From NCBI GenBank assembly GCA_944376845.1, contig CALWDZ010000006.1, positions 964 to 64,963 of the forward strand: DNA of 64,000 nucleotides, written 5' to 3'. The translations under genes and the position numbers were made by a program. Source of the stretch: an uncultured Clostridia bacterium. GTDB lineage: Bacteria; Bacillota; Clostridia; Christensenellales; UBA1242. The notes beneath the pieces were generated by a model. It made no database searches. It was not told where the DNA came from and saw only the letters and a program-made list of their open reading frames with translations. Below are positions 14,691-62,234 of the stretch, piece by piece (position 1 is the first letter of the stretch; every line of letters starts with the position of its first letter).

Positions 14691-14748
14691 GTTTTAATTT
14701 AGATATAAAATATTATTTTTTTTAATTTGTTTATGATATAATATAATT

Positions 14749-15684: not shown

Positions 15685-15708
15685 AATCTTGTTACGCATA
15701 CTAAAAAT

Positions 15709-15900
15709 ATGGGTTACTATAACTATCATGCCAAGATTAAGCAAAAAATAAAAGACGGTGAACTTGTAAGATTTGAATTTGTAGATAATTACAAAAATTA
15801 TTCACCGTGTTTGGTTTTATATTTTAGCGATGGCAAAGTCTATCCAATAAAAGAATATATGTTTGATGAGTATTTACAATTGTTAGACATCAAAGATTGA
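15709..15900 (+). CDS. Small hypothetical protein (63 aa)
   Basis: ORF only, with no clear RBS. It is wedged between the hydrolase gene and a repeat cluster. Confidence 0.3.
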   Translation: MGYYNYHAKIKQKIKDGELVRFEFVDNYKNYSPCLVLYFSDGKVYPIKEYMFDEYLQLLDIKD

Positions 15901-22517: not shown

Positions 22518-22937
22518 TTATTCAAAATCCATAAAATCATCTATATAACATTCAAGATATTTTGCAAGCATAATAAGAGTTTCAAATTTAGGTAATTTTC
22601 CATTTTTCCAATATGAAAAATTACTTCGACCAATACAAATATCTTTTGCAAGTTTTGCTTGTGATATATTTTTTTGTTGCATATTACTACAAAGTTTACT
22701 ATAAAAATTTATAGGCTTGTTTTTATATTGTTTAAAGTTGTTTTTATCACTTAAATGTGCTAAATAATCAAGAGAAATTTCTAAATAATTTGCAATTTTA
22801 ATAATTTGTGGCAAATAAGGCGTATAAATTTTATATTGATAAAATGTTCGTTCGCATATGATTCCAGCAAATTCCAAGTCTTTAAATGTTTTATTTTGTT
22901 CTAACAAAACATCATTAAGCATAGTAAAAAAATTCAT
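22518..22937 (-). CDS. XRE-family transcriptional regulator with two HTH domains
   Basis: 139 aa. Two Cro/C1-type HTH units (..FAGIICERTFYQYK.. and ..SQAKLAKDICIGRSNFSYWKNGK..). Divergent from the DUF1273-like gene. Confidence 0.7.
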   Translation of the reverse strand: MNFFTMLNDVLLEQNKTFKDLEFAGIICERTFYQYKIYTPYLPQIIKIANYLEISLDYLAHLSDKNNFKQYKNKPINFYSKLCSNMQQKNISQAKLAKDICIGRSNFSYWKNGKLPKFETLIMLAKYLECYIDDFMDFE

Positions 22938-37669: not shown

Positions 37670-38447
37670 AAAACACAAAATTGTGGGCGTCTGCGTCGTT
37701 TGCTGTCGGGCAACCCTCACACAGTCATTTGGGTGACCAAACTCCTGCGTGAGGGTACCCGCCGAGCCTAGCATCCGCCACGCAATTTTGTGTTTTTTGT
37801 TAGATTGAGCCTCGTTGTCGGGGCTATTATTGTATTTTATGAATAAGTACAGAGTACACTCAAGTTGGTTCGCACCGTTCTTTTTTGCCTTTTCCGCTTA
37901 CTTTTGCCTATTTTTTCTAGTTTTTATGATTATTTTAGTATTATTTTGTCATTCTGAGGCACCAAAGGTGCCGTGAGAATCTCAACATTTATAAATTTTA
38001 CGTGGCTTGATACCCCGAGCCTAGCATCCGTCACACAATTTTGTGTTTTTTGTTAGATTGAGCCTCGTTATCGGGGCTATTTTTGTGTTTTACTATTATG
38101 TACTCCTACTTTATCTATTTTGTATATTATTTTAATTTCTATAAACTCAACAGTTATTCATAATAGCCAAACTCCTGCGTGAGGGTACCCGCCGAGCCTA
38201 GCATCCGCCACACAATTTTGTGTTTTTTGTTAGATTGAGCCTCGTTATCGGGGCTATTTTTGTGTTTTACTGTTATGTACTCCTACTTTGGTCTATTTTT
38301 TCTAGTCTTTATGGTTATTTTAGTATTATTTTGTCATTCTGAGGCACCAAAGGTGCCGTGAGAATCTCAACTGATTTGAGTTGGTATTTTGCTTTTTGTT
38401 TAAAACACTTGCTAAATAATTCTAGATGTTTTATACTAACTATGTTA
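37668..38447 (+). repeat. Mosaic/tandem repeat region (E-type 37668-37798 and 38168-38205; F-type 37762-37828, 38015-38081, 38192-38258; A-type 37948-37983 and 38333-38368)
   Basis: There are three copies of ccgagcctagcatccg(c/t)cac(g/a)caattttgtgttttttgttagattgagcctcgtt(g/a)tcggggctatt. There are two copies of ..ttttctagt(t/c)tttatg(a/g)ttattttagtattattttgtcattctgaggcaccaaaggtgccgtgagaatctcaac. Confidence 0.9.
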
Positions 38448-38523
38448 GGGCAATTAACTCAGTTGGTAGAGTGTCACTTTGACGTAGTGGAAGTCAGGAG
38501 TTCGAGTCTCTTATTGCCCACCA
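38448..38523 (+). tRNA. tRNA-Val (anticodon GAC), CCA encoded
   Basis: Manual cloverleaf fold. Acceptor GGGCAAT/ATTGCCC is perfect, D stem ACTC/GAGT, anticodon stem TCACT/AGTGG with loop TTGACGT, T stem AGGAG/CTCTT with loop TTCGAGT, then A-CCA. Confidence 0.85.
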
Positions 38524-38530
38524 AATATAA

Positions 38531-38559
38531 AAACCGATTGCAAAAGCAATCGGTTTTTT
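38531..38559 (+). terminator. Rho-independent terminator after tRNA-Val
   Basis: Hairpin aaaccgattgc / gcaatcggttt followed by a T-run. Confidence 0.8.
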
Positions 38560-38611
38560 AATCAATATTTGTTTTTGTGTAAACTGTAAAAATTTTATTT
38601 TTTGTATAATT

Positions 38612-38646
38612 GTCATTCTGAGGCACTTTAGTGCCGTGAGAATCTC
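38612..38646 (+). repeat. A-type repeat unit
   Basis: gtcattctgaggcactttagtgccgtgagaatctc, with inner hairpin ggcac/gtgcc. Confidence 0.8.
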
Positions 38647-38757
38647 AAAAGATGCCTTGCCATCCCTAGATGCAACGCCACTAATGTTTAAGTTTGTAAA
38701 ATCATTTTATATTGTTTTTTATTGTATTTTTATATAGATTTATGATACTTTAAAGTT

Positions 38758-47144: not shown

Positions 47145-47305
47145 AGATTCCTCAGTAAAATTATAAGTTATTATTCATCTTTTACTGTGCACGGTGAGAC
47201 ATAAAATATTTTAAAAAAAGTCCAAAATGAATACTCAAAAACATAAATATATGTTATTATTATTAGCGATAGTATTCAATATATTTATTTTTGGAGTTTT
47301 TATTT

Positions 47306-47782
47306 ATGGAAATACATAAGATTTGTTCATTTTTTGGTCATAGGCATATTGAAATTAGTGAAGATTTGCGAATAAAGTTAAAGACCTTATTGGAAATGTT
47401 AATCATGGAACACAATTATACAACTTTTTATTTTGGTGGTTTTGGTGAGTTTGATGATTTGTGTTGGCAAATAATTACAGAGTTAAAACAAAAATATTGT
47501 TTCATTAAAAGAGTTTATGTTTGTGAAGATTTTAAATTTGTAGACAGACCACATAAACGCCCTGCTTGGCTAAAAGACAGTGATTATGAAGAATTTATTT
47601 ATTTAGATATGGACTACAAAGGATTTTATAAAAGAATATATTTTCGTAATTGTGAAATTATTAAGCAAAGTGATTGTGTTATTTTTTACGTTGAAAGGTT
47701 TGAAAATAGCAATGCCTATAAAGCATTGAAATTTGCAATAATAAAAAGGGTAAAATGTATTAACATCGCCAACTATATTTAA
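47306..47782 (+). CDS. DUF1273/YpsA-like SLOG-domain protein (paralog of 23022-23474)
   Basis: 'ICSFFGHRHI....YTTFYFGGFGEFDDLCWQIITELKQKYCFIKRVYV' shows the same motif order as the other copy. The start is set at ATG 47306 (the track ORF begins at 47291). Confidence 0.5.
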   Translation: MEIHKICSFFGHRHIEISEDLRIKLKTLLEMLIMEHNYTTFYFGGFGEFDDLCWQIITELKQKYCFIKRVYVCEDFKFVDRPHKRPAWLKDSDYEEFIYLDMDYKGFYKRIYFRNCEIIKQSDCVIFYVERFENSNAYKALKFAIIKRVKCINIANYI

Positions 47783-47786
47783 ACAT

Positions 47787-47803
47787 AATATTTTTACTAT
47801 GTT
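47787..47803 (+). repeat. Left copy of the 17-bp direct repeat AATATTTTTACTATGTT (candidate attL / target duplication)
   Basis: Exact match to 59999-60015. The next 7 nt, GTAAAGT (47804-47810), are the inverted complement of ACTTTAC (59992-59998). Confidence 0.6.
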
Positions 47804-47875
47804 GTAAAGTCAAGTAAATTTAAGCAAAAAGTTTAAAAAAATTTTTAAAAATGTAAAATAATGCTTGAATGACAC

Positions 47876-47905
47876 AAAATACCACTCTTGCAAGAGTGGT
47901 ATTTT
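47876..47905. terminator. Perfect 30-bp palindrome / bidirectional terminator
   Basis: aaaataccactcttg|caagagtggtatttt. It lies downstream of the - strand transposase gene. Confidence 0.6.
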
Positions 47906-47982
47906 GCTAAAAAGACTGAGATAAGCATATTTGTTGTAGCAAGAAAAAGCGTGCAAATGCAAGCCTATTTTACCAATATAAA

Positions 47983-49002
47983 TTATGCTATCGCTTTAAG
48001 ATAAGTATCAAATAATTGCCCTGATGTTGCATAACCTAGAACTTGACGCGGGTAATTATTTACCCAATCTTCAACTTTCTGAATATCATCAGCGGAGTAT
48101 TTAGACAAATCACGCCCTTTTGGAATAAGTCGGCGAATTTCACGATTAAGCCGTTCATTTGTGCCACGCTCACAAGAGCAATAAGGATGACAATAGTATA
48201 CACTTGTGCGTTTACTTTTTCCATAAATAGATTTCTCTAAGCCAACGAAATCAGCAAACTCACTACCATTGTCAACCGTTATAGACTTAAACACTTGTTT
48301 GAATTTTTTGCCAAAGCGTCTTTCAAGTTTGTTCAAACACTGTACAACACTTTCAGCCTTTTGATTTTCCATTTTAAAAATTATTTCTTTTCGAGTAAGA
48401 CGTTCACTCAAAACCAACAAAGCAGACTTTGTAGAACCACACACACAGTCCATTTCCCAATGCCCAAATGTTTTACGTTCTTTTATATCAATAGGGCGTT
48501 TCTCAATAGAAGTGCCTTTTGGTGCACGTTTAATTACTTTACGATAAGTTTTTTGTTTTCGTTTACCAAGTTTTAAGTTTGAAAAAATACCAATTTGAAT
48601 ATATCTATAAAGCGTTGTTTTGCTAATTGAAGTTTTAAAGTTAAGTTTATCGTGTTTAATTTGCCCAAGAACAGCACAAGCAGAAATCTTATCTTTTTTG
48701 ACACGATTTTCAACATAACGAACAAACTCAAAGTCATTACCAACTTTGAGCGGTCTACCTTTCCCAGTACATAAGTTATTATATCGTTGTTGTGCAACAT
48801 CCGCACCATAAGAAATATAATAGTCCCAAGTACTACCATTCAATTTCTTATATGCACCACGTTTTAATTCATAGTAGAGTGTACGAAGTCCAATTCCTAC
48901 AGTTGAAGCAATCTCTTTTTTATCAACTTTGGCATTCATTAGTGTTTCAATTTTAACACGCTGAGTGTATGTCAAATTTTTATGACCTTTTCTATTGTTC
49001 AT
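47983..49002 (-). CDS. IS30-family DDE transposase
   Basis: 339 aa. N-terminal HTH (..RTLYYELKRG..) and a DDE core with 'HWEMDCV', 'ITVDNGSEF' and 'YYCHPYCSCERGTNERLNREIRRLIPKG', the IS30 signature spacing. Confidence 0.9.
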   Translation of the reverse strand: MNNRKGHKNLTYTQRVKIETLMNAKVDKKEIASTVGIGLRTLYYELKRGAYKKLNGSTWDYYISYGADVAQQRYNNLCTGKGRPLKVGNDFEFVRYVENRVKKDKISACAVLGQIKHDKLNFKTSISKTTLYRYIQIGIFSNLKLGKRKQKTYRKVIKRAPKGTSIEKRPIDIKERKTFGHWEMDCVCGSTKSALLVLSERLTRKEIIFKMENQKAESVVQCLNKLERRFGKKFKQVFKSITVDNGSEFADFVGLEKSIYGKSKRTSVYYCHPYCSCERGTNERLNREIRRLIPKGRDLSKYSADDIQKVEDWVNNYPRQVLGYATSGQLFDTYLKAIA

Positions 49003-49090
49003 TGTTATGTTCTCCTAAAAATAAAATAACATAAAAAATTTTACAAATCAAACAGGTTATTGTACAATATTTGACAAGGAGATATAAAAA

Positions 49091-49837
49091 ATGGCAGAGA
49101 AACAAAACGACAAACATACCTGTATTTTATGTGGGAAAAAAATAAGAAGTAATTATACATATTGTAAAGATTGCTATTACAATGTTCAAGAGAGAATACT
49201 AGAACTAGACGGACAAAATCAATCACCAATAAAATTAAGAGATTATTACTATAATGCAAAAGACTATGCACTAAGAACAAATAACGAAAACAAAGTTTAT
49301 TACCAAAAACTAACAATGTCTGCGATAGCAAATCTCTTAGTAGAAGTAAGTGATGATGACGATTTGAAATGCAGATTAGAAAAAGACTTCAAAACAATAG
49401 ATAAAAGTATCGTTGAAAAACAACAAAGACCACAAACAAAAGAAAAAATTAATATTGAAACAAAAGAACAGCCAAATAAAAGGACACAAGATGGACACTA
49501 TGTGATGAGCGACCTAGAAGTACGAGTTGATGACGCTATCTACAGTTTAGGCTACGCACACGCCTACGACATTAAAGTCGCAGAAATAACAGAACGTGCC
49601 GTTCAATGTGATTGGTATATACCTGTAACATTTACTGACGGAATATATATTGAATTATGGGGAGTCAACAATGACAGTAAATACGAAAGGAATAAAGAAG
49701 AAAAAATTGAATTGTACCAAAAACACAAACTTCACCTAATACAAATAGAATACGATGAAGCAAAAAACGATACGTCCAGACTGATGAGTATGTTAAAAGC
49801 CAGAATAAAAGAAGAAATAAACGAAATAAAAAAGTGA
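49091..49837 (+). CDS. Zinc-ribbon protein with a C-terminal PD-(D/E)xK-nuclease-like domain (putative)
   Basis: 248 aa. N-terminal 'CILCGKKI....CKDCYY'. The C-terminus '..SDLEVRVDDAIYSLGY....CDWYIP....GIYIELWGV....Y..NKEEKIELYQKHKLHLIQIE' resembles the S..E / D-(F/W)-Y / E-x-W-G nuclease pattern. GGAGAT RBS. Confidence 0.45.
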   Translation: MAEKQNDKHTCILCGKKIRSNYTYCKDCYYNVQERILELDGQNQSPIKLRDYYYNAKDYALRTNNENKVYYQKLTMSAIANLLVEVSDDDDLKCRLEKDFKTIDKSIVEKQQRPQTKEKINIETKEQPNKRTQDGHYVMSDLEVRVDDAIYSLGYAHAYDIKVAEITERAVQCDWYIPVTFTDGIYIELWGVNNDSKYERNKEEKIELYQKHKLHLIQIEYDEAKNDTSRLMSMLKARIKEEINEIKK

Positions 49838-49858
49838 TAAACTATGCTTAAGAGTATT

Positions 49859-49917
49859 AGGCGACCCCTTGTCATATAACAAGTGCCACGCGGTGCGTGG
49901 CAGACAAGGGGTCGCCT
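49859..49917. other. GC-rich two-tier stem-loop (candidate origin / recombination site)
   Basis: Perfect 15-bp outer stem aggcgaccccttgtc / gacaaggggtcgcct (49859-49873 / 49903-49917). It encloses atataacaag plus a perfect 8-bp inner hairpin tgccacgc-ggt-gcgtggca (49884-49902). There is no adjacent U-tract. Confidence 0.6.
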
Positions 49918-49952
49918 TTGCACAAGCAGAATTGAGCCCAAAAACAAAAAAG

Positions 49953-49999
49953 AAAGGGGTGTTCACACTAAACCGTTTGTGAAACACCCCTTTTTTAAT
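49953..49999. terminator. Bidirectional terminator between the nuclease-like gene and Rep
   Basis: Hairpin aaaggggtgttcaca / tgtgaaacacccctttt with T-runs on both strands. Confidence 0.6.
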
Positions 50000-50098
50000 C
50001 TTTATTTTAAATTTTTTCACACTCAAAAGAAATGGCAAAAACACCTATTAAAAATAGGCGTCATACCTTTAAACAACATAAAAGTTTATACAAAAAAA

Positions 50099-51082
50099 TT
50101 AAACCGCTATTCCATAATCATATAAAGTTTGTTGTCTATACTTATACCGAATATGCAAAATATCTCGTTCGTAATCTATCACATCATCAAATAACACAAA
50201 TTTCAAAACAAAGTCCTGCATTACAGTTGCAACATCACTATGATGTAATTTCAAGATAACACAATCTGGTATTCCACGACTATACAATATTTTTTCATTA
50301 GTTTTAGAAATGTATTTAGTAATATAGTCAATAGCGTTACCATTTTTTACTTCAAATTCACTCAATTGAGCAAAATCATTACGCCCAAAAGCATCAGCAA
50401 AAAAGGTGTTTTGATGTGTAATTTGCATTTTGTGTTGTGCAGTAGAATAGTCTTTACATTCTTCAATTTGTCCAACCATTTCATCCTTTGGAATATACAT
50501 TAAAGCGTGAAAATGTAAACGCTTTGTTTCAGGAGCATACTCAAAAACACCCATATACTTCCAACCACGACGAGTATGGAAGTTTGAGAGTGTTCGTTTT
50601 AGTTTCTGACGAAAAGAAATGGCGTCGTGCTTTTTATTATCATAAGTAATTGTTACAAAATGTGTCCATTTATTCAAGCGTGCTTTTCTTCGAAAAAGTT
50701 TAAGGCGTTTATGCAAATTAGAAATCTTTCTGTCAATACCAGTTTGGACATAATTGTCAATATCGTCAATCTGCCCAAATTCATCAATAATAGTGTCTTT
50801 CACGAACTCAAACATATTTTTACGTAAAACGCCACTTTTGATTGCAGTAAAATAAACATAATCAAAAAAGTAGTCCAATTTGCTCTTCATTTTCTTTCTA
50901 GGTAACACTGACTGATATTTCTTAAGCACACTTGCAACATAATGTCCACCGTCATTGTATACTTTGAAATATTGCTCTTCGTTGACTTTACGGTTGTTAT
51001 CATAAAAAACACCACTATCAGTGAAGTAAGAATACATATTATCAAAAGGTGTCAATTCAAAACTTCTTGCACAACCTTGCAT
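50099..51082 (-). CDS. HUH-superfamily rolling-circle replication initiator (two-tyrosine type)
   Basis: 327 aa. Motif I 'HFVTITYD', motif II 'RLHFHALMYIP' (H-u-H) and motif III 'IDYITKYISKT' (Y-x-x-K-Y-x-x-K, like phiX174 gpA-type Reps), in canonical order and spacing. Confidence 0.75.
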   Translation of the reverse strand: MQGCARSFELTPFDNMYSYFTDSGVFYDNNRKVNEEQYFKVYNDGGHYVASVLKKYQSVLPRKKMKSKLDYFFDYVYFTAIKSGVLRKNMFEFVKDTIIDEFGQIDDIDNYVQTGIDRKISNLHKRLKLFRRKARLNKWTHFVTITYDNKKHDAISFRQKLKRTLSNFHTRRGWKYMGVFEYAPETKRLHFHALMYIPKDEMVGQIEECKDYSTAQHKMQITHQNTFFADAFGRNDFAQLSEFEVKNGNAIDYITKYISKTNEKILYSRGIPDCVILKLHHSDVATVMQDFVLKFVLFDDVIDYERDILHIRYKYRQQTLYDYGIAV

Positions 51083-51146
51083 AAAAACTCCTATTTAGAA
51101 ACAAAAATTAGGTTAAATGGTGTCTAAAAAGACACCATTACCCAAA

Positions 51147-53795
51147 CTAATTTTTAACAACTTCGAATTCTATCATCTCTAATTGATAATTATCGCCGTA
51201 ATCTTTTTCTCCGCCAGTTTGTTCACCAGAAATACTTACATATTCCCAACTATCAGAAGTTTCATTGTATTGAAAAATGATATTAAAATTAAACGAACCG
51301 TATAATGTAGAACCAACTAAACCAACATTATTGGGATGAGAATAAGCAAATACATATACAATTTGATTATTTTCATTCATAGTCAACTCATCATATGTAT
51401 CATCAAAAAGTACAGTTTCAATCTTCGCAACTTTGTCATTAAAAACTTCCAAAGTAAAATTTTTAGTTAAAGCAACATCTAGGGTTTCGGCACCACCACT
51501 CGATGTAATTCTAAAAGACATAGAAACATCATAAGAAGAAAATTCATCCAAAATTATACCATCGGTATTAGCCTCACGATTAAACGTAGCAACATATGAA
51601 GTAGCATCATTTCCAATAGTAATTGTATAACGTAAACGCCAACAATCATTAAAAACACTGTAAATCATTTCAGTATAGTTATAAGTTACATTATTTGCAC
51701 TTGAAAAATCTGCATTCATAGATATAGTATCAACATCTTGAACATTTACAGATTGATAACCAGCAAAAGTTGTATAATATGGAGACGAACTTGTTATATT
51801 CCCATTTTCATCAATATAAAATTGTTTCATACTTGAAGGGAAAATTAGAGTATCGTCAGTTACAAAATAACCAGAATACAAATACTCAAATTTTGCGTAG
51901 TATGTTCTATCGGTATTTATTTTCAATTCCGAAAGTTCTTCATTGGTATAAACATTATTATAATTCTTATTCTGCCAACCTACAAAACGCATAAGTGTAG
52001 GTGTTGAAACTTCTGGAATAGTTACATAAGGTGTATCTTTTGGAACTATAACAGTCGAAATTAAATCAACTTCAGAATTATAGAAAGACACAACATATTC
52101 AACCTGTTCATAATATGATATAAAGGAAACATTGGAAGTAACAACATAAGTAGATAAATCTACTTGCTGTGGTATTAAACCAGAAGTTTGCCAATACTTA
52201 AACTCATAATGTTCTTTTGTTGGTATATCAAAATCTAAATCGCCAACAACTTCACCATAATTGACTTGTTTTGTACCAATAATTTGACCCATTATCCACG
52301 ATGTAGTAAATGTAACTGTAAATGTCTGTATCTCATATTTTGCCACAAATGTCACACTACTATTTACTTGATAAGTCGAAAAATCAATTATATCAGTACC
52401 ATTTATTGTCCAGCCCAAGAAATCGTAACCAGTTTTTGCAGGGGCAACCTGTTCAGTGACATAAGAACCCTGTTTTAATATTTCTGTATAGATATCTTCA
52501 TCATCAACACTAAAAACAACATCATAATAGTAGGTTATATCTGCAACAAAAGTTGTATCTGCCCAAATACGCTGAGAAGAAATATCTACCAAACTACCAC
52601 TAAGTGTCCAGCCATTGAATACTTTGTATGTAGTATCTTCAATATCAACATCCGTTGCATATTCGCCATTTCTAACTTGCTGTGTTTCCTTAACTCCGTT
52701 TTCATACATAAACGTTACCGTATGAAGTTTAGTAAATACTGGAAGATATGTGGTGTCTGAAGTAATAGCCTTAGAAGAAACATCTACAACATTAACACCG
52801 TCCAATGACCAACCGTCAAACTCATAACCAGCCTTTGATGGTGTACTTGGAAGTGTTGCAAAACCATTTTCAACTACTATTTGACTGTCATATTCTGCGT
52901 TATCTACCATAAATTTAACATCATATTTCTTTGTTACGTTAGCAACAAATGTTGTATTCTCAGAAACTTGATAAGTAGACAAATCAACCCGTTCACCATT
53001 TACAGTCCAGTAATTAAAAATCACATACTCTGTAGATGTTGGCTCAGTTACAGTAACAGTAGAGTTTTTGTCTACAATTTGAATGTTATATAACACACCG
53101 TTAAAGTCAAAACGTGCAACAACCTTGCCTTCAAAAACGATGTCTGAGATAAAATCATCATAATAAGCCAAAGCCTTTTCTAATTCATCAATTCTTTGAT
53201 TTAAGTCAACTATAGTTGACGCATTACTTTGAACCAAAGCACTCATTTCAGATATTTGAGAGTTCAAGGTCTTAATTTGACTTTGCAAAATATCTATAGT
53301 ATCAATATTATTCTTAATAACGGTTTGTAACTCACTGTTTACATTACGCAAATCAGAAATTATACCATTCAAGTTCAATATTTGCTCAGCAAAACTACCA
53401 TTACTATTTTCCAAATTTTTTATCTGGACTTCAAGCGAAGAAATAGTACTTTCATTGTCTTTAATAGTCTTTTCATTATCAGCATTTATTTGTGTCAAAT
53501 TATCAACTTGCTGTTGAAGTGAAGACTTATCAGACTCTAAACTTTCAATTTGTTTTTGCTTTGTATCATTATCTTGCGTTAATGTATCAACTTGACTTTT
53601 TAAACTATTTAGAAGTTCATCATTCTTTATGGCGTCATTATAACCTTCATTATACTTGTCTTCTAAATCCTGCTGAGTGTATAAATTTTCCGTATCACTA
53701 ACTTGAAACGCCAAAGGAAGAGCCAAGCAAAGCATTAAAACTAAAATGACAATAATAAAAACAAATTTACTAGAACTTTTAGTTTTATTCTTCAT
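51147..53795 (-). CDS. Secreted/anchored 882-aa protein: signal anchor, ~170-aa coiled coil, six Listeria-Bacteroides-type (Flg_new) repeats, unique C-terminal domain
   Basis: N-terminal 'FVFIIVILVLMLCLALPLAF', heptad-rich region 40-210, six ~70-aa repeats ending in '(G)Y.F.GW......vd.s...v....tf.a.y', and a ~270-aa C-terminus with no motif I recognise. Confidence 0.7.
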   Translation of the reverse strand: MKNKTKSSSKFVFIIVILVLMLCLALPLAFQVSDTENLYTQQDLEDKYNEGYNDAIKNDELLNSLKSQVDTLTQDNDTKQKQIESLESDKSSLQQQVDNLTQINADNEKTIKDNESTISSLEVQIKNLENSNGSFAEQILNLNGIISDLRNVNSELQTVIKNNIDTIDILQSQIKTLNSQISEMSALVQSNASTIVDLNQRIDELEKALAYYDDFISDIVFEGKVVARFDFNGVLYNIQIVDKNSTVTVTEPTSTEYVIFNYWTVNGERVDLSTYQVSENTTFVANVTKKYDVKFMVDNAEYDSQIVVENGFATLPSTPSKAGYEFDGWSLDGVNVVDVSSKAITSDTTYLPVFTKLHTVTFMYENGVKETQQVRNGEYATDVDIEDTTYKVFNGWTLSGSLVDISSQRIWADTTFVADITYYYDVVFSVDDEDIYTEILKQGSYVTEQVAPAKTGYDFLGWTINGTDIIDFSTYQVNSSVTFVAKYEIQTFTVTFTTSWIMGQIIGTKQVNYGEVVGDLDFDIPTKEHYEFKYWQTSGLIPQQVDLSTYVVTSNVSFISYYEQVEYVVSFYNSEVDLISTVIVPKDTPYVTIPEVSTPTLMRFVGWQNKNYNNVYTNEELSELKINTDRTYYAKFEYLYSGYFVTDDTLIFPSSMKQFYIDENGNITSSSPYYTTFAGYQSVNVQDVDTISMNADFSSANNVTYNYTEMIYSVFNDCWRLRYTITIGNDATSYVATFNREANTDGIILDEFSSYDVSMSFRITSSGGAETLDVALTKNFTLEVFNDKVAKIETVLFDDTYDELTMNENNQIVYVFAYSHPNNVGLVGSTLYGSFNFNIIFQYNETSDSWEYVSISGEQTGGEKDYGDNYQLEMIEFEVVKN

Positions 53796-53797
53796 TT

Positions 53798-56002
53798 TTA
53801 CTCCTTTTTATTTTTCTCATTCAATTCGCTTACAAAATAACTATTTTGCATTTTAAGTTCATCAAAACTAGCCTTTTCGGTGATATATTCGGGTAAATCA
53901 CCAATACCCACACTTGAACGCAAAGACTTTAAATTAAAGTAATCACTAAAACAGTCAGTAGAAAAGCGTTTACTATATATCTTTTTGTTCATTAAATAAT
54001 ATTTTTTATCATCCACAGCACTATCTTGAGTACCTTTTTCAACTTGCAAATTAAGTACAGAATAACCAAAAATGTTATGAATGTTTGTATAATGTTTAAA
54101 AAAGAAATTGACAATTTGTTTTATTAAATAAATAGGGAGAGAGTTATCACCACGATTATATCTATACTTAACATACAAATTTTGAAATTTATCAATAACA
54201 AAACCATAAACAAGTTCAAACAATGAAAATAATGGCATTGCCAAACGCTCATCGCCAGTACTTTCAATATGGACAATATCAAGCAAATCACGAGCGTCAG
54301 CACCCCAACTTTCAGGTCGTTGTTCATCTGTAATCACTTTTACAAAAGGGAAATAGTCTACTGTTGCTGAGTGCCTAACCATTTTAAGCCAGTCATTAAA
54401 ACCATCATTTTTTTGATTAGTAATATCTTCATTCTTTTTTATTTCTTTAAGTTCAAGATTATTTTTTCGTTCTTTGCCTATCTCTGTTATATTCACAACG
54501 CCAAATTCAAAACTATCTTTATTGATATTGTCCGCAATAAGTTTTTTACCAAGTCGCAGACTATCGAAGTCCAAAATATGTGAGTGTCTTGAAAAACTAT
54601 CTATAAATCTACTATCTCGTTTAAAAAAATCTTCATTCCAAACGGGAAAATTACCAATGTCATCAATTAAATTGTCTACACGAATTGAATAGTTTGACAA
54701 AATCAAACTACTTTGAACTATGTAAATAAAGTATAATTGAGAATATGTTTCCAGCACATCCCAAATATTAGTCATTTTGAGTTTGTCATCATACCAAACA
54801 CCGTAGAGTGTGAATTCGTAATCAAAGATAAAATTTTTAAAGTTATACCCAAACAACTTTTTTAAGTGCCTTAAACAAGATTTTTCAACTGCGATATCTT
54901 GCGTTTGAATACTCCAAAAATATTCAATATGCTGAATAAACTTTCTGCAAGTCGCCAAATTATATATCAGGTGTCTATTTATTGCTTGTTTTAAAGTATT
55001 TTCTAAGTTTACCCACGGGAAATTTGGAAACTTCAAATCATTCAAAAGTAGTTTTTCAAATGCTTTATCTCTAAACATACACTCTTGACTAAGCGACATA
55101 TCTGTAATAACCGTTGTTTTCTTTTTGCCCATTGTTCCACAAACCATAAGCACAATAGGGCGTTCATTTATAAAACCACAGTTCCTACGCTCAAAATGGT
55201 GCAATCGTGCATAACCAATTTTTCTACACATTTTGTATACAATCACACAAATTATTAAAAGCCAAACTGGAAGTGGCACAGTGGCAAACATTACGCTTAA
55301 ATCACAAAATAATTTATAAATTTGTATATAAATATTTGAAATATCAAATGACAAAACAAAGTACAAATAAAATGCAATAAATTCAATTATTATTGAAAAT
55401 ATATTAAAATTAAAAGCAAAGATAACTAGCCATATTGTAATAAAATGTGAATTTTTCAAATACTGCCAAAATGTTAAACTCCAATTTTTTATAGGCATTA
55501 CAACACTAGACAAAAATTTTTTATAGCACTTCAAAGGTTTTGTATCTTTGTTGTAATCATTGTTTTGTACAGTCATATATCTACGAAAATAAACATACAA
55601 TAGCAAAACAGCAGGCATTCCAACAAGAAGTAGTATTTTTGAAAAAGATAACAAAGCATTGCCTATAAAATTAAAATATGCTTGTAAATTGTTTAGTGTA
55701 AAAAATGTATTCCAATAATTTGACCAAGCAAGTGTAAACTCTTCCCAAGTTGCAGGCAAATTCAAAAATGGCGTAAATGGTATAGAACTAAGATTTGTTA
55801 CAGTAATATCAATGTTAGCATCAATACCAAACAAAGTACAAAAATAATATTTTATACTATTCCAAAGGTCAACAAAACTTTCACCAATTCGAATAAATGC
55901 ACTAGGGAAGAACAATACAGAAACGATTACAAAACACGCAGTAATAACAAGACATATATAAAATCTATAATCAATGCTTTTTATCTTTTCCCAAACTTTC
56001 AT
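53798..56002 (-). CDS. Polytopic membrane protein (about 7-8 TM) fused to a cytoplasmic P-loop-like NTPase domain
   Basis: 734 aa. The N-terminal 260 aa are hydrophobic, followed by 'RPIVLMVCGTMGKKKTTV', a deviant Walker A (G-x-x-G-K-K-K-T). AGGTG RBS. It starts 9 nt after the upstream small ORF. Confidence 0.6.
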   Translation of the reverse strand: MKVWEKIKSIDYRFYICLVITACFVIVSVLFFPSAFIRIGESFVDLWNSIKYYFCTLFGIDANIDITVTNLSSIPFTPFLNLPATWEEFTLAWSNYWNTFFTLNNLQAYFNFIGNALLSFSKILLLVGMPAVLLLYVYFRRYMTVQNNDYNKDTKPLKCYKKFLSSVVMPIKNWSLTFWQYLKNSHFITIWLVIFAFNFNIFSIIIEFIAFYLYFVLSFDISNIYIQIYKLFCDLSVMFATVPLPVWLLIICVIVYKMCRKIGYARLHHFERRNCGFINERPIVLMVCGTMGKKKTTVITDMSLSQECMFRDKAFEKLLLNDLKFPNFPWVNLENTLKQAINRHLIYNLATCRKFIQHIEYFWSIQTQDIAVEKSCLRHLKKLFGYNFKNFIFDYEFTLYGVWYDDKLKMTNIWDVLETYSQLYFIYIVQSSLILSNYSIRVDNLIDDIGNFPVWNEDFFKRDSRFIDSFSRHSHILDFDSLRLGKKLIADNINKDSFEFGVVNITEIGKERKNNLELKEIKKNEDITNQKNDGFNDWLKMVRHSATVDYFPFVKVITDEQRPESWGADARDLLDIVHIESTGDERLAMPLFSLFELVYGFVIDKFQNLYVKYRYNRGDNSLPIYLIKQIVNFFFKHYTNIHNIFGYSVLNLQVEKGTQDSAVDDKKYYLMNKKIYSKRFSTDCFSDYFNLKSLRSSVGIGDLPEYITEKASFDELKMQNSYFVSELNEKNKKE

Positions 56003-56010
56003 AACAACAC

Positions 56011-56100
56011 CTATTTACCAATAGTGAATATAAAATAACCAACAACAAGCAAAACAAATATACCTAAAATAACCTTTAAAACTAACTTAAACTTTTTCAT
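56011..56100 (-). CDS. 29-aa single-TM peptide (below the ORF-track cutoff)
   Basis: The manual translation is MKKFKLVLKVILGIFVLLVVGYFIFTIGK. Its ATG overlaps the upstream TGA (ATGA coupling). Confidence 0.4.
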   Translation of the reverse strand: MKKFKLVLKVILGIFVLLVVGYFIFTIGK

Positions 56101-56345
56101 ACTTTGCCTTTACAAAAACGTTGCAACTTTTCTTTTTTACTCTTGTCATACTTTTTAAAAAGTTTTCCACCTTTTAAAAACCCATTTAAAAAACTTGCAG
56201 TTTCTTTTTCATTTTTTAAACTTACAAACTCTTTTTCAGAATAACCGTCAAAGTATGAAGAACCAGTTATTCCAACACCAAAGCCTTTATAATACGCTCG
56301 TTTTTCTTTTGAAGAGTATTGTTTCTTAGATTTTGCCATTTCCAC
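56097..56345 (-). CDS. Small basic protein (82 aa)
   Basis: Lys-rich ORF in the operon with a GGAGTG RBS. No recognisable motif. Confidence 0.45.
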   Translation of the reverse strand: MEMAKSKKQYSSKEKRAYYKGFGVGITGSSYFDGYSEKEFVSLKNEKETASFLNGFLKGGKLFKKYDKSKKEKLQRFCKGKV

Positions 56346-56443
56346 TCCTAATTATTTAAAAACTTTGTTAAAAACATTGACTTTTATTTTAAAATAAATA
56401 TACTAATTATAGTCGGTTAGATAAACAGCCTTAATTGAGCAGT

Positions 56444-56779
56444 TCATCGCCGACTTTTTTCATTCTTATTTAAGATTTCGCAAACCTTAATTTTATCTTT
56501 TTTAGAGAATTTCCAGCCTTTACGCACACTTATATTAGACTTTTTATCAACATATTTACGGTTAATCAAATATACTTGTTTGGTTGATTTTGGATTTGGA
56601 TGTTTCTCTAATGGCACATTATTAAAAATTTTGGTTTTACCTTTTCTTTTTACTCTAACAACTGGCTTGGTAGAAATTAAAAGATTTTTTCTAAATTTAT
56701 CATCACCATCATAAACATAGGAATAATGTTTACGATGACGATTATAACCAAAATAATTTTTACGTTTGTCTTTGCTCAT
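56444..56779 (-). CDS. Highly basic protein (111 aa), possible nucleic-acid binder
   Basis: K/R-rich throughout. ATGA overlap with the upstream gene. Confidence 0.45.
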   Translation of the reverse strand: MSKDKRKNYFGYNRHRKHYSYVYDGDDKFRKNLLISTKPVVRVKRKGKTKIFNNVPLEKHPNPKSTKQVYLINRKYVDKKSNISVRKGWKFSKKDKIKVCEILNKNEKSRR

Positions 56780-58173
56780 TTCTTACCCCTTTTACTAAAC
56801 AGTGATTTTATCAACTTAAAAGGCAAAGAAACTACAAACCATACCACTTGAAATATTGCTTTTATTATTGTGCCTAGTACACTTAATATCGTAGGGAGTA
56901 TAGGCAACAAAAGGAAAATCAAAAGAATAAGCAATATAGTGCCCATCAATCGTTGCAACCAAGTTAATTGATTAGGGTTGTTTGCAGGTGTCATACTGCC
57001 AGATTGCTTATTATCAACAACACCGAGATTATAAACTTCTCCGTCTGTTTCAAACTTCAAACGAAGTAAAGTCACTTCTTCAACCCGAGTACCAGTTTCA
57101 TAATTAGTGATTGCAACACTACCAATACTATCAGCCCACTTTTGATAATCACTAGCAAAAAAATTTAACACCCACTGCTTACCATTCAAATTTCGTTTTG
57201 CAGTATCAGATAAATTTTTGCCATCCATAAATTCCGCAACAGTTTCAATTTGTTTCCAAGAATATTCAGTTTTAAAAAACAAGCCAACTTGTACTTCAGT
57301 TGTTTCGTTACTGTAAAGTGTATCAGTCACTTGTTGTTCTTCGCCATACTCATATGTTGGAAATGTTATTTGAGAAGGGTTTAATATGCCTGTATCTTCA
57401 GTCATTTTGTATATTTTATATATATAAGATATATCGACTTCAAAAAGCCTATCAATATCATAGTCAGTTGAAAAAGCAACAAAATGACTATCACAAGCCT
57501 TACCAGACCAATTTATAGCAGTTGTATATCTATAAAAACCAACATATTTTTCTGTAACTTCAACAACCTGTGTTGATTGACAATCATAATGAACCTGTCC
57601 ATTATCATCAGTTACAGCGGTGTAAAGTTTTGCAACAGAATAGGAAACTTCATCAATAGTATTATCGCTATAAACAGGAACATCTTCATCAAAATTTTCA
57701 TTCCAAGCACGGAATATTGACGAAATATCATATTGTCTTATACCTGCATTTTGCACGTAAAGATTTTCAACCCTATATTTAAAAAACACACCATTTTCAC
57801 TAACCAAAGTTAAAGCATAATTTCTATAACTTAAACTGTCAGTTAGCAAAGATATATTGATTGAAGTGGCATATAGGTTATTTACCGAAACAAAATCAAT
57901 ACCACCCGACTGGTAAACATAAATAAAAAGTTCGTTATTTTCACTTTCAGCAATTTGAATAACTTGTAAAGATGTAACATTTTCAATCAAAGGGAAATCC
58001 TTTTCTGAAAAGTTTTCATCTTTATGCAAATCTTCTAATACATCTGAATAACTTATAGTAGACTCATCATCTGCATAAGTAATCATATTGTTTAAAGGTA
58101 TAGTTAGAAAGATAAAGAGAAAAGACAAAAAGACACAACATACCAACAATAAACTATTTATCTTTCTTGTCAT
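56776..58173 (-). CDS. Secreted 465-aa protein with N-terminal signal/anchor and C-terminal double TM anchor
   Basis: 'LLLVCCVFLSFLFIFLTIPL' at the N-terminus and 'GTILLILLIFLLLPILPTILSVLGTIIKAIFQVVWFVVSLPF' at the C-terminus. The ectodomain is beta-rich. Confidence 0.55.
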   Translation of the reverse strand: MTRKINSLLLVCCVFLSFLFIFLTIPLNNMITYADDESTISYSDVLEDLHKDENFSEKDFPLIENVTSLQVIQIAESENNELFIYVYQSGGIDFVSVNNLYATSINISLLTDSLSYRNYALTLVSENGVFFKYRVENLYVQNAGIRQYDISSIFRAWNENFDEDVPVYSDNTIDEVSYSVAKLYTAVTDDNGQVHYDCQSTQVVEVTEKYVGFYRYTTAINWSGKACDSHFVAFSTDYDIDRLFEVDISYIYKIYKMTEDTGILNPSQITFPTYEYGEEQQVTDTLYSNETTEVQVGLFFKTEYSWKQIETVAEFMDGKNLSDTAKRNLNGKQWVLNFFASDYQKWADSIGSVAITNYETGTRVEEVTLLRLKFETDGEVYNLGVVDNKQSGSMTPANNPNQLTWLQRLMGTILLILLIFLLLPILPTILSVLGTIIKAIFQVVWFVVSLPFKLIKSLFSKRGKK

Positions 58174-58201
58174 AATTCCACCTTATTAAAGTAGAGTGAA
58201 A

Positions 58202-58681
58202 TTATTTATTAAATGTAACAGTTAATTGATTAGCATATGTAGGTATATCAAAGACAGACATTGTAACATCTTCTTCTTCAACTTGATTTGGTGTTATTTC
58301 AACACGGAATAGAGTTGCGTTTTCTGGAATAGTTTCAACATCAAAATTTTCATTTAATGCTTCAGTTGTTGAAATATATTCTTCATTTTCATTATAAAAC
58401 GCAAGTCTGTATGTTATATTAGCGTCATCGCTTATTTCAACAACAATTCCGTCAACTGTATAAATATCTTTTGACACAATTGATGTATTAGCGTCGACAA
58501 CAATTCCAGTTTCGTTAATTTTACCAAGACCATAATCTAAACTTGACAATGTTTTAGTAGTGGTCAATTTATCTACATTTACAAATAGGGCAACAACCGC
58601 ACCGATGATTAAAATCATAGCAACTAAAGTTAAAGCCCATTTCCATTTATCACTTTTTATATGCTTTCCTAAATTACTCAT
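58202..58681 (-). CDS. N-terminally anchored 159-aa protein
   Basis: The TM 'WALTLVAMILIIGAVVALFV' followed by a beta-rich domain. GGAGTG RBS. Confidence 0.5.
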   Translation of the reverse strand: MSNLGKHIKSDKWKWALTLVAMILIIGAVVALFVNVDKLTTTKTLSSLDYGLGKINETGIVVDANTSIVSKDIYTVDGIVVEISDDANITYRLAFYNENEEYISTTEALNENFDVETIPENATLFRVEITPNQVEEEDVTMSVFDIPTYANQLTVTFNK

Positions 58682-58743
58682 TTTTCACTCCTTAAAAATT
58701 AAATTAAAAATTTTGTCTTTTCTCTATCTATACCCAAAGAAGA

Positions 58744-58944
58744 TTACACACAATATTTTTCAACTTGCTGTAATATGTCTTGATAACTTTCCTTAATGAA
58801 AAATCCAAGACTATCGCCATTTTTATCAACGCCAGTTTCTACAAAACAAAGACCGTTAACATTTACGATGGAATATATTTTTGCTAGTGGTAATAAAACA
58901 GTTTTTTCTTCATCCAGCAGGTGAAGTTCAATAAAATTAAACAT
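58744..58944 (-). CDS. Hypothetical 66-aa protein
   Basis: ORF in the operon. It starts 1 nt after the stop of the upstream 40-aa ORF. Confidence 0.4.
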   Translation of the reverse strand: MFNFIELHLLDEEKTVLLPLAKIYSIVNVNGLCFVETGVDKNGDSLGFFIKESYQDILQQVEKYCV

Positions 58945-58945
58945 C

Positions 58946-59068
58946 TTAACCCCCTGTTGAAATAGGAAAATTTAATACTTCTTCAACACTAAAACCTTTT
59001 GCTAATAGTTCGTCAAACATCTTACGAACATCATTAAAGGTTAGTTCTGCACCGACACTTATCTTCAT
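58946..59068 (-). CDS. Hypothetical 40-aa protein (below the ORF-track cutoff)
   Basis: The manual translation is MKISVGAELTFNDVRKMFDELLAKGFSVEEVLNFPISTGG. GGTGG RBS. It fills the gap between neighbouring ORFs. Confidence 0.3.
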   Translation of the reverse strand: MKISVGAELTFNDVRKMFDELLAKGFSVEEVLNFPISTGG

Positions 59069-59080
59069 AATCCACCGCCT

Positions 59081-59539
59081 TTATGCCTTAACTTTTAATG
59101 TGTTAATGAGCATACCAAGAAGTGCTTTATCACTATCTCTCGATGGTTTAACACCACAAACATATTCTGAACCATCAGTATCAACAGTTTTGAGAGTATA
59201 AGTTGAATATGTTGATTTCTTGCCAGTAATATTGTCGGTCATTTCTTCTTTACCGATTATAAGTTGTGCTTTTGGTTGAACATCGAACAAAATATCTAGA
59301 GGTTCATAACCGCCTTTATCTTTTGGTGAAAAGTCAACTTTGACATCACGGTTTCTTACTTTGCCTTTAACAAAATAACTCCAATATTCCTTACCGTCAT
59401 TTCCGACAAAACTTTCACGCTCAACATACAATGTTGGTACAACAGTTTTTTCTTCTTTTACTTCCGTTTCTGCAACTTCATTTTTTACAATTTCATTTTC
59501 TTTCTTTTCCATAATTTCAATTCCTTTTAATACTTTCAA
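59081..59539 (-). CDS. Hypothetical 143-152-aa protein (possible OB-fold/ssDNA-binding candidate, unproven)
   Basis: Acidic N-terminus followed by a beta-rich core. An alternative ATG start at 59512 has an AAGGA RBS. Confidence 0.45.
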   Translation of the reverse strand: MKVLKGIEIMEKKENEIVKNEVAETEVKEEKTVVPTLYVERESFVGNDGKEYWSYFVKGKVRNRDVKVDFSPKDKGGYEPLDILFDVQPKAQLIIGKEEMTDNITGKKSTYSTYTLKTVDTDGSEYVCGVKPSRDSDKALLGMLINTLKVKA

Positions 59540-59623
59540 AAATTTTTTTGCTAAACTTTAACTATTCAGCCAGTGCTTGTCTAAACGCCAAGGCTTACAG
59601 TATTATTAAAAATAAAAAATAAA

Positions 59624-59914
59624 TTACTTATACTTTTCGTAATGCCTAATCGATGAACGCAACCAGCCACGACTATCTGCACGATACAAGTCACTTAAAG
59701 CCTTAGTTGCAGATGGATAACCAGTCGTAACACTGGCACATCCAGACCCTAACGAATTTTTTCGCCATTTAGGTTTATTCTTGCAACGTTTACCTGTCAA
59801 CACAATTTGATAACCACCATAAGCACGGTCAATATCTAAATAATTTTTGGTGTTCTTGCAATATTTACGATTAAGCCTAGATACTTCATCTTTTAAATCC
59901 CTAAATGTAGCCAA
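59624..59914 (-). CDS. Basic 96-aa protein, first gene of the element operon
   Basis: TTG start with AAGGAGG RBS 8-9 nt upstream. K/R-rich with no motif I recognise. Confidence 0.45.
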   Translation of the reverse strand: MATFRDLKDEVSRLNRKYCKNTKNYLDIDRAYGGYQIVLTGKRCKNKPKWRKNSLGSGCASVTTGYPSATKALSDLYRADSRGWLRSSIRHYEKYK

Positions 59915-59998
59915 TACAAATGCCTCCTTTTAATAAAGTGTTAAAAAGTACAACAAAAAAAAGTTCTACTCTTTACGCTTATAAGAGTAAAACTTTAC

Positions 59999-60015
59999 AA
60001 TATTTTTACTATGTT
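59999..60015 (+). repeat. Right copy of the 17-bp direct repeat AATATTTTTACTATGTT (candidate attR / target duplication)
   Basis: Exact match to 47787-47803. It lies 10 nt upstream of the -35 of the tRNA-His promoter. Confidence 0.6.
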
Positions 60016-60025
60016 AAAATAATAA

Positions 60026-60054
60026 TTGACAAATTTTTCTCTTTATATTATATT
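60026..60054 (+). promoter_or_regulatory. Sigma-A-type promoter of tRNA-His
   Basis: TTGACA (60026-60031), 17 nt, TATATT (60049-60054). The tRNA starts at 60067. Confidence 0.5.
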
Positions 60055-60066
60055 TGTATATGCTAT

Positions 60067-60144
60067 GGTGGATATAGCGTAGTTGGCTAACGCGCCAGAT
60101 TGTGGCTCTGGAGACCATGGGTTCAAGTCCCATTATTCACCCCA
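60067..60144 (+). tRNA. tRNA-His (anticodon GTG) with encoded G-1 and CCA
   Basis: Manual fold. G-1 plus acceptor GTGGATA/TATTCAC (one G:U), D stem GCGT/ACGC, anticodon stem CCAGA/TCTGG with loop TTGTGGC, T stem ATGGG/CCCAT with loop TTCAAGT, discriminator C, CCA. The extra 5' G opposite C73 is the tRNA-His hallmark. Confidence 0.9.

Positions 60145-60281: not shown

Positions 60282-62234
<1,953 letters not shown>

Follow-up and report, generated by a model that had tools for sequence, protein, structure and literature searches.

A 12.2-kb, probably filamentous-phage-like and tail-less mobile genome with an IS30-family transposase in an uncultured Clostridia bacterium

The IScream phages are prophages of gut Clostridia that use a domesticated, outward-facing IS30 transposase (Wirbel, Hickey et al., Nature 2025, PMC12823448). 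Gut Clostridia also carry the "Clade-1" inoviruses of 5.6-9.4 kb, all of which encode a stand-alone Zot protein (Sugimoto et al., 2021, PMC8530359), and transposases have been noted in inovirus-like genomes, where domesticated copies were not distinguishable from selfish ones (Roux et al., 2019). The insertion sequence (IS) IS30 transposes via a junction of its two inverted repeats (IR-IR junction) in minicircles and (IS30)2 dimers (PMC9333248). The present analysis concerns a 12.2-kb element in a stretch of 64,000 nucleotides (hereafter the window) from an uncultured Clostridia bacterium (assembly GCA_944376845.1, contig CALWDZ010000006.1, positions 964-64,963 of the forward strand). Positions 47804-59998 of the window probably hold, in integrated form, a small mobile genome that is temperate and tail-less and is kin to the filamentous-phage-like (Tubulavirales-type) elements of gut Clostridia. 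The initial annotation of this DNA had proposed a single mobile genome, integrated by a DDE transposase and flanked by a 17-bp target-site duplication. This proposal was supported by an empty site, by copies at other sites, by target-site duplications across the family, by IR-IR junctions, and by the lack of private IS ends within the element.

The 12.2-kb block proved to be a genuine mobile genome that moved recently and lies inserted between a host gene and tRNA-His. The 17-mer AATATTTTTACTATGTT had exact copies in the window only at 47787-47803 and 59999-60015, which are the left and right copies of the target-site duplication. Directly inside these repeats were the inverted 7-mers GTAAAGT (47804-47810) and ACTTTAC (59992-59998). 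The left repeat begins 5 nt past the stop of an open reading frame (ORF) at 47291-47782, and the right repeat ends 10 nt ahead of the promoter TTGACA-17-TATATT (60026-60054), which precedes tRNA-His (60068-60144), such that the host tRNA and its promoter (60026-60144, plus strand) are intact despite the insertion. The positions of the repeats and their distances from the flanking genes agreed with the initial annotation, as did its caution that a chance pair of 17-mers is not vanishingly rare: dinucleotide-shuffled versions of the window averaged 0.77 exact direct pairs with a length of 17 nt or more, and 54% of them had one or more such pairs. The 17-mer match by itself is not significant; the case is carried instead by the empty site and the family data.

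Six contigs were retrieved by a GyrB identical to that encoded at window positions 60309-62234, and three of them (L089; L092, which is GCA_949294485.1; and L093) contained the empty site that had been proposed as a check. It consisted of the left flank CGCCAACTATATTTAAACAT, one 17-mer with one single-nucleotide polymorphism (AATATTTTCACTATGTT), and the right flank AAAATAATAATTGACAAA. The flanks were exactly 17 bp apart and the 12,195 bp between the repeats were missing; the single 17-mer in these contigs identifies the pair in the window as a target-site duplication. Two further copies of the element, L001 and L007, with 95-98.6% nucleotide identity, were located at other chromosomal sites, and their flanks were not present in the window. 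In L001, the sequence departs right after ...TTACTTGACTTTAC (terminal inverted repeat end ...GACTTTAC) into a RadC gene, which fixes the element boundary at window position 47804. L007 contained the complete element between copies of another 17-bp repeat, CAATTTGTATATGATTT. The complete 12.2-kb unit was mobilised in one piece; imperfect terminal inverted repeats form its limits, and its insertion duplicated 17 bp of the target. Furthermore, none of the four findings that the initial annotation had named as speaking against a mobile genome was made, namely the block as conserved core synteny lacking the repeat, a 17-mer common throughout the genome, ORFs placed in a conjugation or cell-wall system, or an IS30 copy with complete ends of its own inside the block.

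The element encodes an IS30-family DDE transposase of 339 aa (47983-49002, minus strand) that is transcribed outward and probably serves as its domesticated integrase. The protein matched NCBIfam NF033563 (IS30 equivalog) at 214 bits, against a cutoff of 80, and Pfam rve above the gathering score. A co-oriented IS30-family transposase was located at the downstream end, after ATPase and Rep, in about 48 of 80 relative loci, whereas other members (L003, L004, L063, L071, and L083) harbored a tyrosine integrase and a divergent cI-like helix-turn-helix (HTH) repressor in place of IS30. No private inverted repeat was detected upstream of the transposase gene, nor was a second IS30 copy within the window, and the distal end gave no rve or HTH_38 match. 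The basic protein b96 (59624-59914, minus strand), the first ORF at the distal end, was considered as an inward-facing IS30 remnant and rejected, as it has no similarity to IS30.

The terminal inverted repeats are about 26-28 bp long. The repeat at the transposase end (47804-47831; GTAAAGTCAAGTAAATTTAAGC...) has the exact boundary seen against L001 and is conserved family-wide as (T/C)GAAAAGTCAAG..., and that at the distal end (59971-59998; reverse complement GTAAAGTTTTACTCTTATAAGCG...) is conserved as YGTAAAGTTTTA.... A second terminal block at about positions 17-27 varies among elements and matches between the two ends of one element, a pattern that recognition of both ends by a single DNA-binding protein would produce. 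In about 20 diverged relatives, elements of 10.4-18.5 kb were bordered by exact direct repeats with a length of 15-17 bp, in most cases 16-17 bp, compared with repeats of 10-14 nt in control regions. These duplications were unrelated in sequence, often not of low complexity (e.g., AAGTCGTCCGTCTTGT and CGCCCTGCACTTACGC), and lay directly against the two conserved termini, of which the one next to the transposase reads YGAAAAGTCAAG.... The same module was thus found elsewhere with different duplications, both in L007 and in the diverged relatives.

Circular forms were identified in relatives. Closed circles were represented by L004 (tyrosine-integrase type, 30-nt terminal overlap), L062 (IS30 type, 141-nt overlap), and L104 (43-nt overlap). 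Eight IR-IR junctions were detected, in L062, L102, L104, L107, and L108 and as tandem or graph junctions in L009, L011, and L084/85. All had the form ...CTTGACTTTTCA, then two bases NN, then YGTAAAGTTTTA..., with the spacers AA, TT, AA, GT, TA, TA, AA, and TT, and never contained a 17-bp core. L009, L011, and L084/L085 represent head-to-tail tandems or assembly-graph links with a 2-bp spacer and are reminiscent of (IS30)2 dimers and IR-targeting. The window element, whose joined ends would be ...CTTGACTTTAC and GTAAAGTTTTAC, may likewise form the closed circle or head-to-tail tandem with a 2-bp spacer that is shown in its relatives. A scan of metagenome contigs for the junction pattern gave 17 matches, of which four were family members and the remainder chance, and the same scan of IMG/VR gave one irrelevant match.

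The IR-IR junction of IS30 has a 2-bp spacer as well. The element further resembles IS30 and IS1630 in its IS30-family transposase, its terminal inverted repeats of about 26-28 bp, and its circle or tandem IR-IR junction (PMC9333248). On the other hand, the target duplication of 17 bp here, and of 15-17 bp family-wide, is outside the 2-3 bp typical of the IS30 family (2 bp for IS30 itself), and an "IS" of the window type has 10-18 kb with its own replicon and a morphogenesis module. Long duplications, which the initial annotation had mentioned for some Mollicutes IS30-family elements, are documented for IS1630 of this family, which makes duplications of 16-26 bp (PMC3317919).

Tailed phages of gut Clostridia, namely FP_Lagaffe, Saumur, and nd12, encode transposases with 40-53% identity to that of the window. 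IScream phages and the family of the window element both have an outward IS30 transposase at one end, a gut Clostridia host, and circular beside integrated forms. In contrast, IScream phages are tailed, with capsid and tail-fibre genes, and have a second, degenerate, inward-facing IS30 copy in a composite-transposon-like arrangement, whereas the window element has one transposase, a bare inverted repeat at the far end, no caudoviral genes, and a rolling-circle Rep. PMC12823448 does not report the duplication length, terminal repeats, or junction spacer of IScream phages, and does not name FP_Lagaffe, Saumur, or nd12. The integration principle is known, and the suggestion in the initial annotation of an undescribed lineage is plausible for the body of the element but not for IS30-mediated phage integration, which had already been published for the IScream phages (2025) and, reportedly, earlier for SpV1.

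The rolling-circle Rep of 327 aa (50099-51082, minus strand) contained an HUH motif (HFHALMY) and a two-tyrosine motif of the phiX type (YITKYISK). It matched PF23343 (REP_ORF2-G2P) at 41.6 bits (gathering score 27.8, E = 1.6e-10) and also Phage_GPA, which places it in the family of plectrovirus ORF2 and inovirus gpII. Two hairpins follow the Rep gene, with a DNA fold z of -9.2. The first is terminator-like in its DNA fold and, with a T-run, closes the Rep operon (49941-49990, minus strand). The second is a conserved GC-rich hairpin with an asymmetric bulge (49860-49916, minus strand); its counterparts in about 28 relatives, L013 and the tyrosine-integrase circle L004 among them, lie 190-280 nt past the Rep gene. 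The lower stem (GCGACACCTTG/CAAGGTGTCGC) carries a GC-rich upper stem that varies, and the structure also has a conserved 3' bulge (CTTGTTATATG in the window, CTCGTWTWR in the family) and a TAATR flank. Across an alignment of 22 sequences, pairing holds in 95.2% of cells and compensatory changes occur at 15 of the 20 pairs, a covariation that was reached by none of 500 shuffles and that collapsed in slid controls. The hairpin matched no Rfam family; the sole Rfam match was the flanking tRNA, and no family was found within the element. The hairpin travels with Rep and not with the transposase. It is a candidate replication origin, in which case the bulge would contain the nick site, or else a candidate single-strand origin or packaging signal. 

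The hallmark of the family is a 734-aa protein (ATP734; 53798-56002, minus strand) that consists of a polytopic helical membrane domain (residues 1 to about 280) and a P-loop ATPase with the motifs GTMGKKKTT, ITE, RH, and DEQRPES. No match was found in Pfam, PHROGs, or PADLOC, and none that was meaningful in NCBIfam. At least 2,982 homologs remained at 90% clustering, and clustering at 50% identity gave 1,013 clusters, of which 496 had E <= 1e-30, nearly all at full length; none of the homologs contained a Pfam domain. The AlphaFold2 model (predicted local distance difference test, 93.5) reproduced the division into a helical membrane domain of about 280 residues and a P-loop domain. Foldseek matches were weak and led by FtsK/HerA-type packaging NTPases, with no PDB or BFVD match at E <= 0.001; the best were STIV2 B204, HerA, A32-like ATPases, and an unnamed 269-aa viral protein. 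Direct membership of ATP734 in Zot received no support, as Pfam Zot was negative and the Zot protein of bajarodino virus 74 matched at the P-loop only. The ATPase domain matched a Clostridial Zot-like family, of which 13 of 27 members match Pfam Zot (best E = 5.9e-18), with an hhalign probability of 43% (E = 2.5e-4). A relaxed alignment to this family was colinear over six motifs (Walker A, S.NY, RLG, the unusual I-T-E Walker B, (R/Q)H, and D(E/T)QRP..R(E/D)L); in ATP734, about 120 additional residues separate Walker A from Walker B. No homolog of the membrane domain was found as a separate gene in Zot-type genomes. ATP734 may thus be a pI/Zot-derived assembly ATPase that was fused to a new membrane domain.

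A link to filamentous-phage-type elements is indicated by two circular genomes. The sister circle L104 (ULVV01036025.1, 11.8 kb) encodes a 272-aa Zot-family protein where ATP734 sits in the window element, and shares with it p152 (56% identity), p66, Rep (44%), IS30 (52%), and termini with a 2-bp spacer. The genes run Zot, Rep, x, IS30 both in L104 and in bajarodino virus 74 (PQ006121), a circular genome of 10.2 kb that was deposited under Inoviridae. Both the Zot-type circles and the window element are about 10-12 kb, carry their genes on one strand, and are arranged in the order small ORFs, a large signal/transmembrane (TM) protein, an ATPase, a Rep, and an outward IS30. They differ in that the Zot of the circles is a separate protein of 245-272 aa that lacks TM segments, whereas the window family has the 734-aa protein with a membrane domain, an insertion, and a C-terminal extension. 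The structural genes differ too. The Spiroplasma plectroviruses (SpV1 group, Plectroviridae) are similar to the element in their ORF2/G2P Rep (PF23343), IS30-like transposase, small one-strand genome, lack of lysis genes, and integrated host copies, and the IS30-like transposase of SpV1 has reportedly been proposed as its integrase. They differ in their Mollicutes host, a genome of about 8 kb, and the absence of an ATP734 homolog. Spiroplasma phages were among the 46 phage records that match the window transposase, but ranked below the top 30 matches, which indicates that they are more distant than the gut-phage transposases.

The remaining genes between ATP734 and the distal end, all on the minus strand, include candidates for a morphogenesis module. 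A 29-aa single-TM micro-protein (56011-56100; MKKFKLVLKVILGIFVLLVVGYFIFTIGK) abuts the ATPase start, and about 65 of 82 loci had a conserved single-TM ORF of 29-31 aa just ahead of the ATPase gene, with the consensus MKTFKRLLKVLLGIV..IGYFIYTG (...LGIV..IGYFIYTG) and a GYFIFTG motif. This ORF had been missed in the initial annotation; it does not show up when ORFs below 40 aa are left off the list. The basic residues of the micro-protein lie at its N-terminus, and no coat-protein family matched it. Beyond it, toward the distal end, are the small basic proteins b82 (56097-56345, net charge +12) and b111 (56444-56779, net charge +26). The conserved but fast-evolving p465 (56776-58173) has an N-terminal signal/TM segment and a C-terminal TM anchor, a pIII- or spike-like topology, and the conserved p159 (58202-58681) has an N-terminal TM segment and an acidic ectodomain. 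The small proteins p66 and p40 (58744-59068) are soluble, and p66 is common to the Zot-type circle L104.

The soluble p152 (59081-59539; probably 143 aa with a start at 59512) has 269 homologs and is a candidate single-stranded DNA (ssDNA)-binding protein. Its AlphaFold2 topology (beta1-3, alpha, beta4-6, alpha) is OB-like and compatible with a gpV-like ssDNA-binding role, of which it is no proof. As the only conserved soluble protein that is not basic, p152 was also considered as the capsid protein of a membrane-containing icosahedral phage (PM2- or PRD1-like, Varidnaviria), and this was rejected because the model contains no jelly-roll fold. No match to p152 was found among PDB sequence profiles. 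Overall, the ORF content reported in the initial annotation (an IS30 transposase, a two-Tyr HUH Rep, a polytopic P-loop protein, three small basic proteins, and TM/signal proteins) was reproduced, and so was its finding of no recombinase, capsid, terminase, or tail gene, for which no element ORF had a match in Pfam, PHROGs, or NCBIfam.

Synteny across 86 loci gave the core order p152, (p40, p66), p159, p465, basic protein(s), ATP734, variable, Rep, variable, integrase. Integration modules (IS30, or tyrosine integrase with a cI-like repressor) and replication modules swap, and the ATPase module is constant. In L042, which is from the cultured Pumilibacter intestinalis CLA-AA-M10 (element NZ_CALPCH010000018.1, L042 1909-17348) and is flanked by TTACAAAATTTTTCTCG, the G2P-type Rep and the hairpin are lacking and a Rep with Rep_OBD and a superfamily 3 helicase is encoded at the distal end (L042 2926-4092). 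This exchange indicates that replication modules are swapped while the ATPase module stays constant.

These features suggest the following life cycle. The outward-facing IS30-family transposase would act as integrase, with the IR-IR junction as the substrate for IS30-type integration, and would insert the circular form at AT-rich intergenic sites, with cuts in the target staggered by about 16-17 bp. Replication would follow the rolling-circle mode and depend on action of the two-Tyr HUH Rep in or close to the conserved bulged hairpin that follows its gene, and p152 may coat the ssDNA. The 29-aa TM protein, p159, p465, the basic proteins, and the putatively Zot-derived ATP734 would assemble particles and export them across the membrane without lysis. 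The nuclease gene and the 882-aa surface protein described below are exchangeable cargo. The virus-like character of the element is argued by the tyrosine integrase and cI-like repressor of L003 and L004, the G2P/ORF2 Rep, the sisters with Zot, the hairpin, and the module swaps. The initial annotation had likened the gene set to filamentous or pleomorphic viruses. The filamentous half of this comparison is partly supported by Zot in the ATP734 position of L104 and by the colinear alignment, and the pleomorphic half found no support in the comparison with plasmavirus L2 given below.

Several observations weigh against this interpretation. We infer virion formation from the genes. The structural candidates matched no Pfam or PHROG family, and no inovirus-type major coat protein (a TM segment with a basic C-terminus) was evident. 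The Zot homology of ATP734 rests on the hhalign probability given above, whereas Foldseek ranks FtsK/HerA-type NTPases first, if weakly. The Foldseek matches of p152 to single-stranded DNA-binding proteins and nsp9 were weak and not significant (all E > 0.05). The element, at 12.2 kb (relatives 10.4-18.5 kb), is larger than classical inoviruses, and the circular ssDNA genomes of Tubulavirales (Inoviridae, Plectroviridae, and Paulinoviridae) span 5.5-10.6 kb. Only two loci with the ATPase were found in IMG/VR. The IR-IR junction is known from relatives and was not observed for the copy in the window, and the combination of a 17-bp duplication with a 2-bp junction spacer is one without a worked-out mechanism.

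Among the alternatives, the one that survives best, although we consider it unlikely, is a non-viral integrative rolling-circle plasmid or "giant IS," the membrane proteins of which would serve contact-dependent DNA transfer without a particle, similar to actinomycete integrative and conjugative elements. The latter combine a Rep, the FtsK-like TraB, small Spd membrane proteins, and an integrase. The layout of ATP734, with N-terminal TM segments followed by a motor, is that of FtsK, SpoIIIE, and TraB, and its best Foldseek matches are in the FtsK/HerA superfamily; the lack of a capsid-like protein, the near absence of the family from IMG/VR, and the surface-adhesin-like cargo would also fit such a plasmid. 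However, no element ORF had a Pfam or NCBIfam match to a relaxase, type IV coupling protein, VirB4, or FtsK-type translocase, the sister genomes have a bona fide Zot in the ATP734 position, and the Rep is of the phage G2P/ORF2 family. The inovirus-colinear gene order and the cI-like repressor with tyrosine integrase in some members also argue for a virus.

A virus with a pleomorphic enveloped virion that buds from the cell (plasmavirus or pleolipovirus type), in which the basic proteins would condense the DNA inside a vesicle studded with p465 and p159, is still more doubtful. It would account for the three soluble, very basic proteins, the spike-like p465 with its signal segment and C-terminal anchor, the lack of a coat protein with a basic C-terminus, and the Foldseek matches to packaging NTPases of membrane-containing viruses, and the genome size is near the 11,965 bp of L2. 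L2 ORF13 has 738 aa, yet the hhalign profile comparison with ORF13 and ORF1, of the kind proposed in the initial annotation, gave a probability below 1%; no sequence or profile similarity was found to any L2 ORF tested, and L2 was not returned by tblastn against the phage collection. Moreover, the nearest relatives encode Zot, and the hosts of related loci are Clostridia, which are normally walled and monoderm. Budding through a wall is not known from such hosts, which counts against a pleomorphic virus. Finally, an ordinary IS30 lying beside an unrelated, vertically inherited host operon for cell-envelope or secretion functions, with the 17-mer pair arising by chance (about 0.8 pairs are expected per window), was refuted by the strains of the same species whose empty site holds a single 17-mer and by the family survey, in which the same block occurred at other sites, duplications and ends were common across the family, relatives formed circles, and no internal IS end was present.

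The filamentous-phage-like mobile genome thus remains the favored interpretation, and its family is widespread. ATP734 had at least 450 matches among GTDB species-representative genomes. The hosts are metagenome-assembled genomes of gut Clostridia, including Ca. Caccovivens, Scatosoma, Onthoplasma, Coproplasma, Pelethenecus, Gallimonas, and Christensenellaceae, and one cultured host, the P. intestinalis strain mentioned above. The only ATP734-bearing record in INPHARED was the uncultured faecal MT835493.1 (57 kb, "Bacteriophage sp.," human faeces). This record encodes an ATP734 relative (45%) with an adjacent Rep (39%) and is far larger than the elements described here, and the relative may sit in a larger host or prophage fragment. 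In the literature searched, no prior description of the 734-aa family or of the module was found.

Two genes of the element are cargo, as the nuclease gene is absent from L001 and L007 and the 882-aa gene is replaced in L007. The first (49091-49837, plus strand) encodes a CxxC Zn-ribbon and a PD-(D/E)xK nuclease domain and resembles a candidate anti-phage defence gene (PADLOC PDC-S69, E = 4.7e-24); an 813-bp indel removes it from L001 and L007. The "Zn-ribbon/nuclease-like" label of the initial annotation is corrected to that of a gene that ends in a PD-(D/E)xK nuclease domain and is cargo, missing from near-identical copies. Many relatives encode a homolog of it at the corresponding position but on the other strand. 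The data suggest a defence-cargo hotspot between Rep and the integrase. The second gene (51147-53795, minus strand) forms a variable cassette for an 882-aa protein with a signal anchor, a coiled coil, and Listeria-Bacteroides repeats (Flg_new, 6e-24). Only the window and L001 (93% identical) have this cassette, which most relatives lack; the L042 element encodes a different Flg_new protein at another position.

Other observations concern the window as a whole. GC skew was negative from about 48 to 60 kb, which fits the almost wholly minus-strand genes of the block. The sole near match to the 17-mer (22918-22934, minus strand, two mismatches) lies near a cI-like HTH match (22521-22679) and may be a coincidence or belong to another mobile region. 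The flanking ORF 47291-47782 (plus strand) had been labeled "DUF1273-like," a label that received no support, as no Pfam or NCBIfam match was found at E <= 0.01. Its called length varies between 156 and 163 aa across conspecific contigs, and an exact-protein look-up of this upstream host gene returned no record. The host DNA also contained short repeats of the form TGTCATTCTGAG-(hairpin)-GAGAATCTC at 14465-16290, 26163, and 37737-38650, and longer repeats at a spacing of 250-430 bp surround tRNA-Val (38448-38523); these repeats resemble repetitive extragenic palindromic (REP) or miniature inverted-repeat transposable (MITE) elements.

In the body of the element, the family of membrane-fused ATPases, the 29-aa TM protein, and the origin-like hairpin with its covariation appear to be new, as does the anatomy of transposition, with a single transposase, 15-17-bp duplications, and circles with 2-bp junctions. 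A broader proposal, which we regard as evenly balanced, is that the element is the first known member of a major, hitherto overlooked lineage of tail-less viruses that chronically infect Gram-positive anaerobes of the gut. Such viruses would be a replicating IS30 "minicircle" with the IR-IR junction as attachment site, 15-17-bp duplications, and a new membrane-fused export ATPase of pI/Zot descent, would occur in at least 450 species-level genomes, and would have been missed almost completely by current virus-detection catalogues. The results extend transposase-mediated lysogeny, as reported for the tailed IScream phages, to tail-less rolling-circle elements, and supply its missing molecular anatomy, i.e., exact ends, duplications, IR-IR junction circles, and a single transposase instead of a composite transposon. 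A large unannotated protein family of 1,013 clusters marks abundant mobile genomes in Christensenellales-like gut bacteria that are nearly absent from virus catalogues, and ATP734 could serve as a new hallmark gene for the detection of such elements. The presence of a related element in the cultured P. intestinalis CLA-AA-M10 makes the family directly testable. Furthermore, the family may show how filamentous-phage-type export was adapted to bacteria without an outer membrane.

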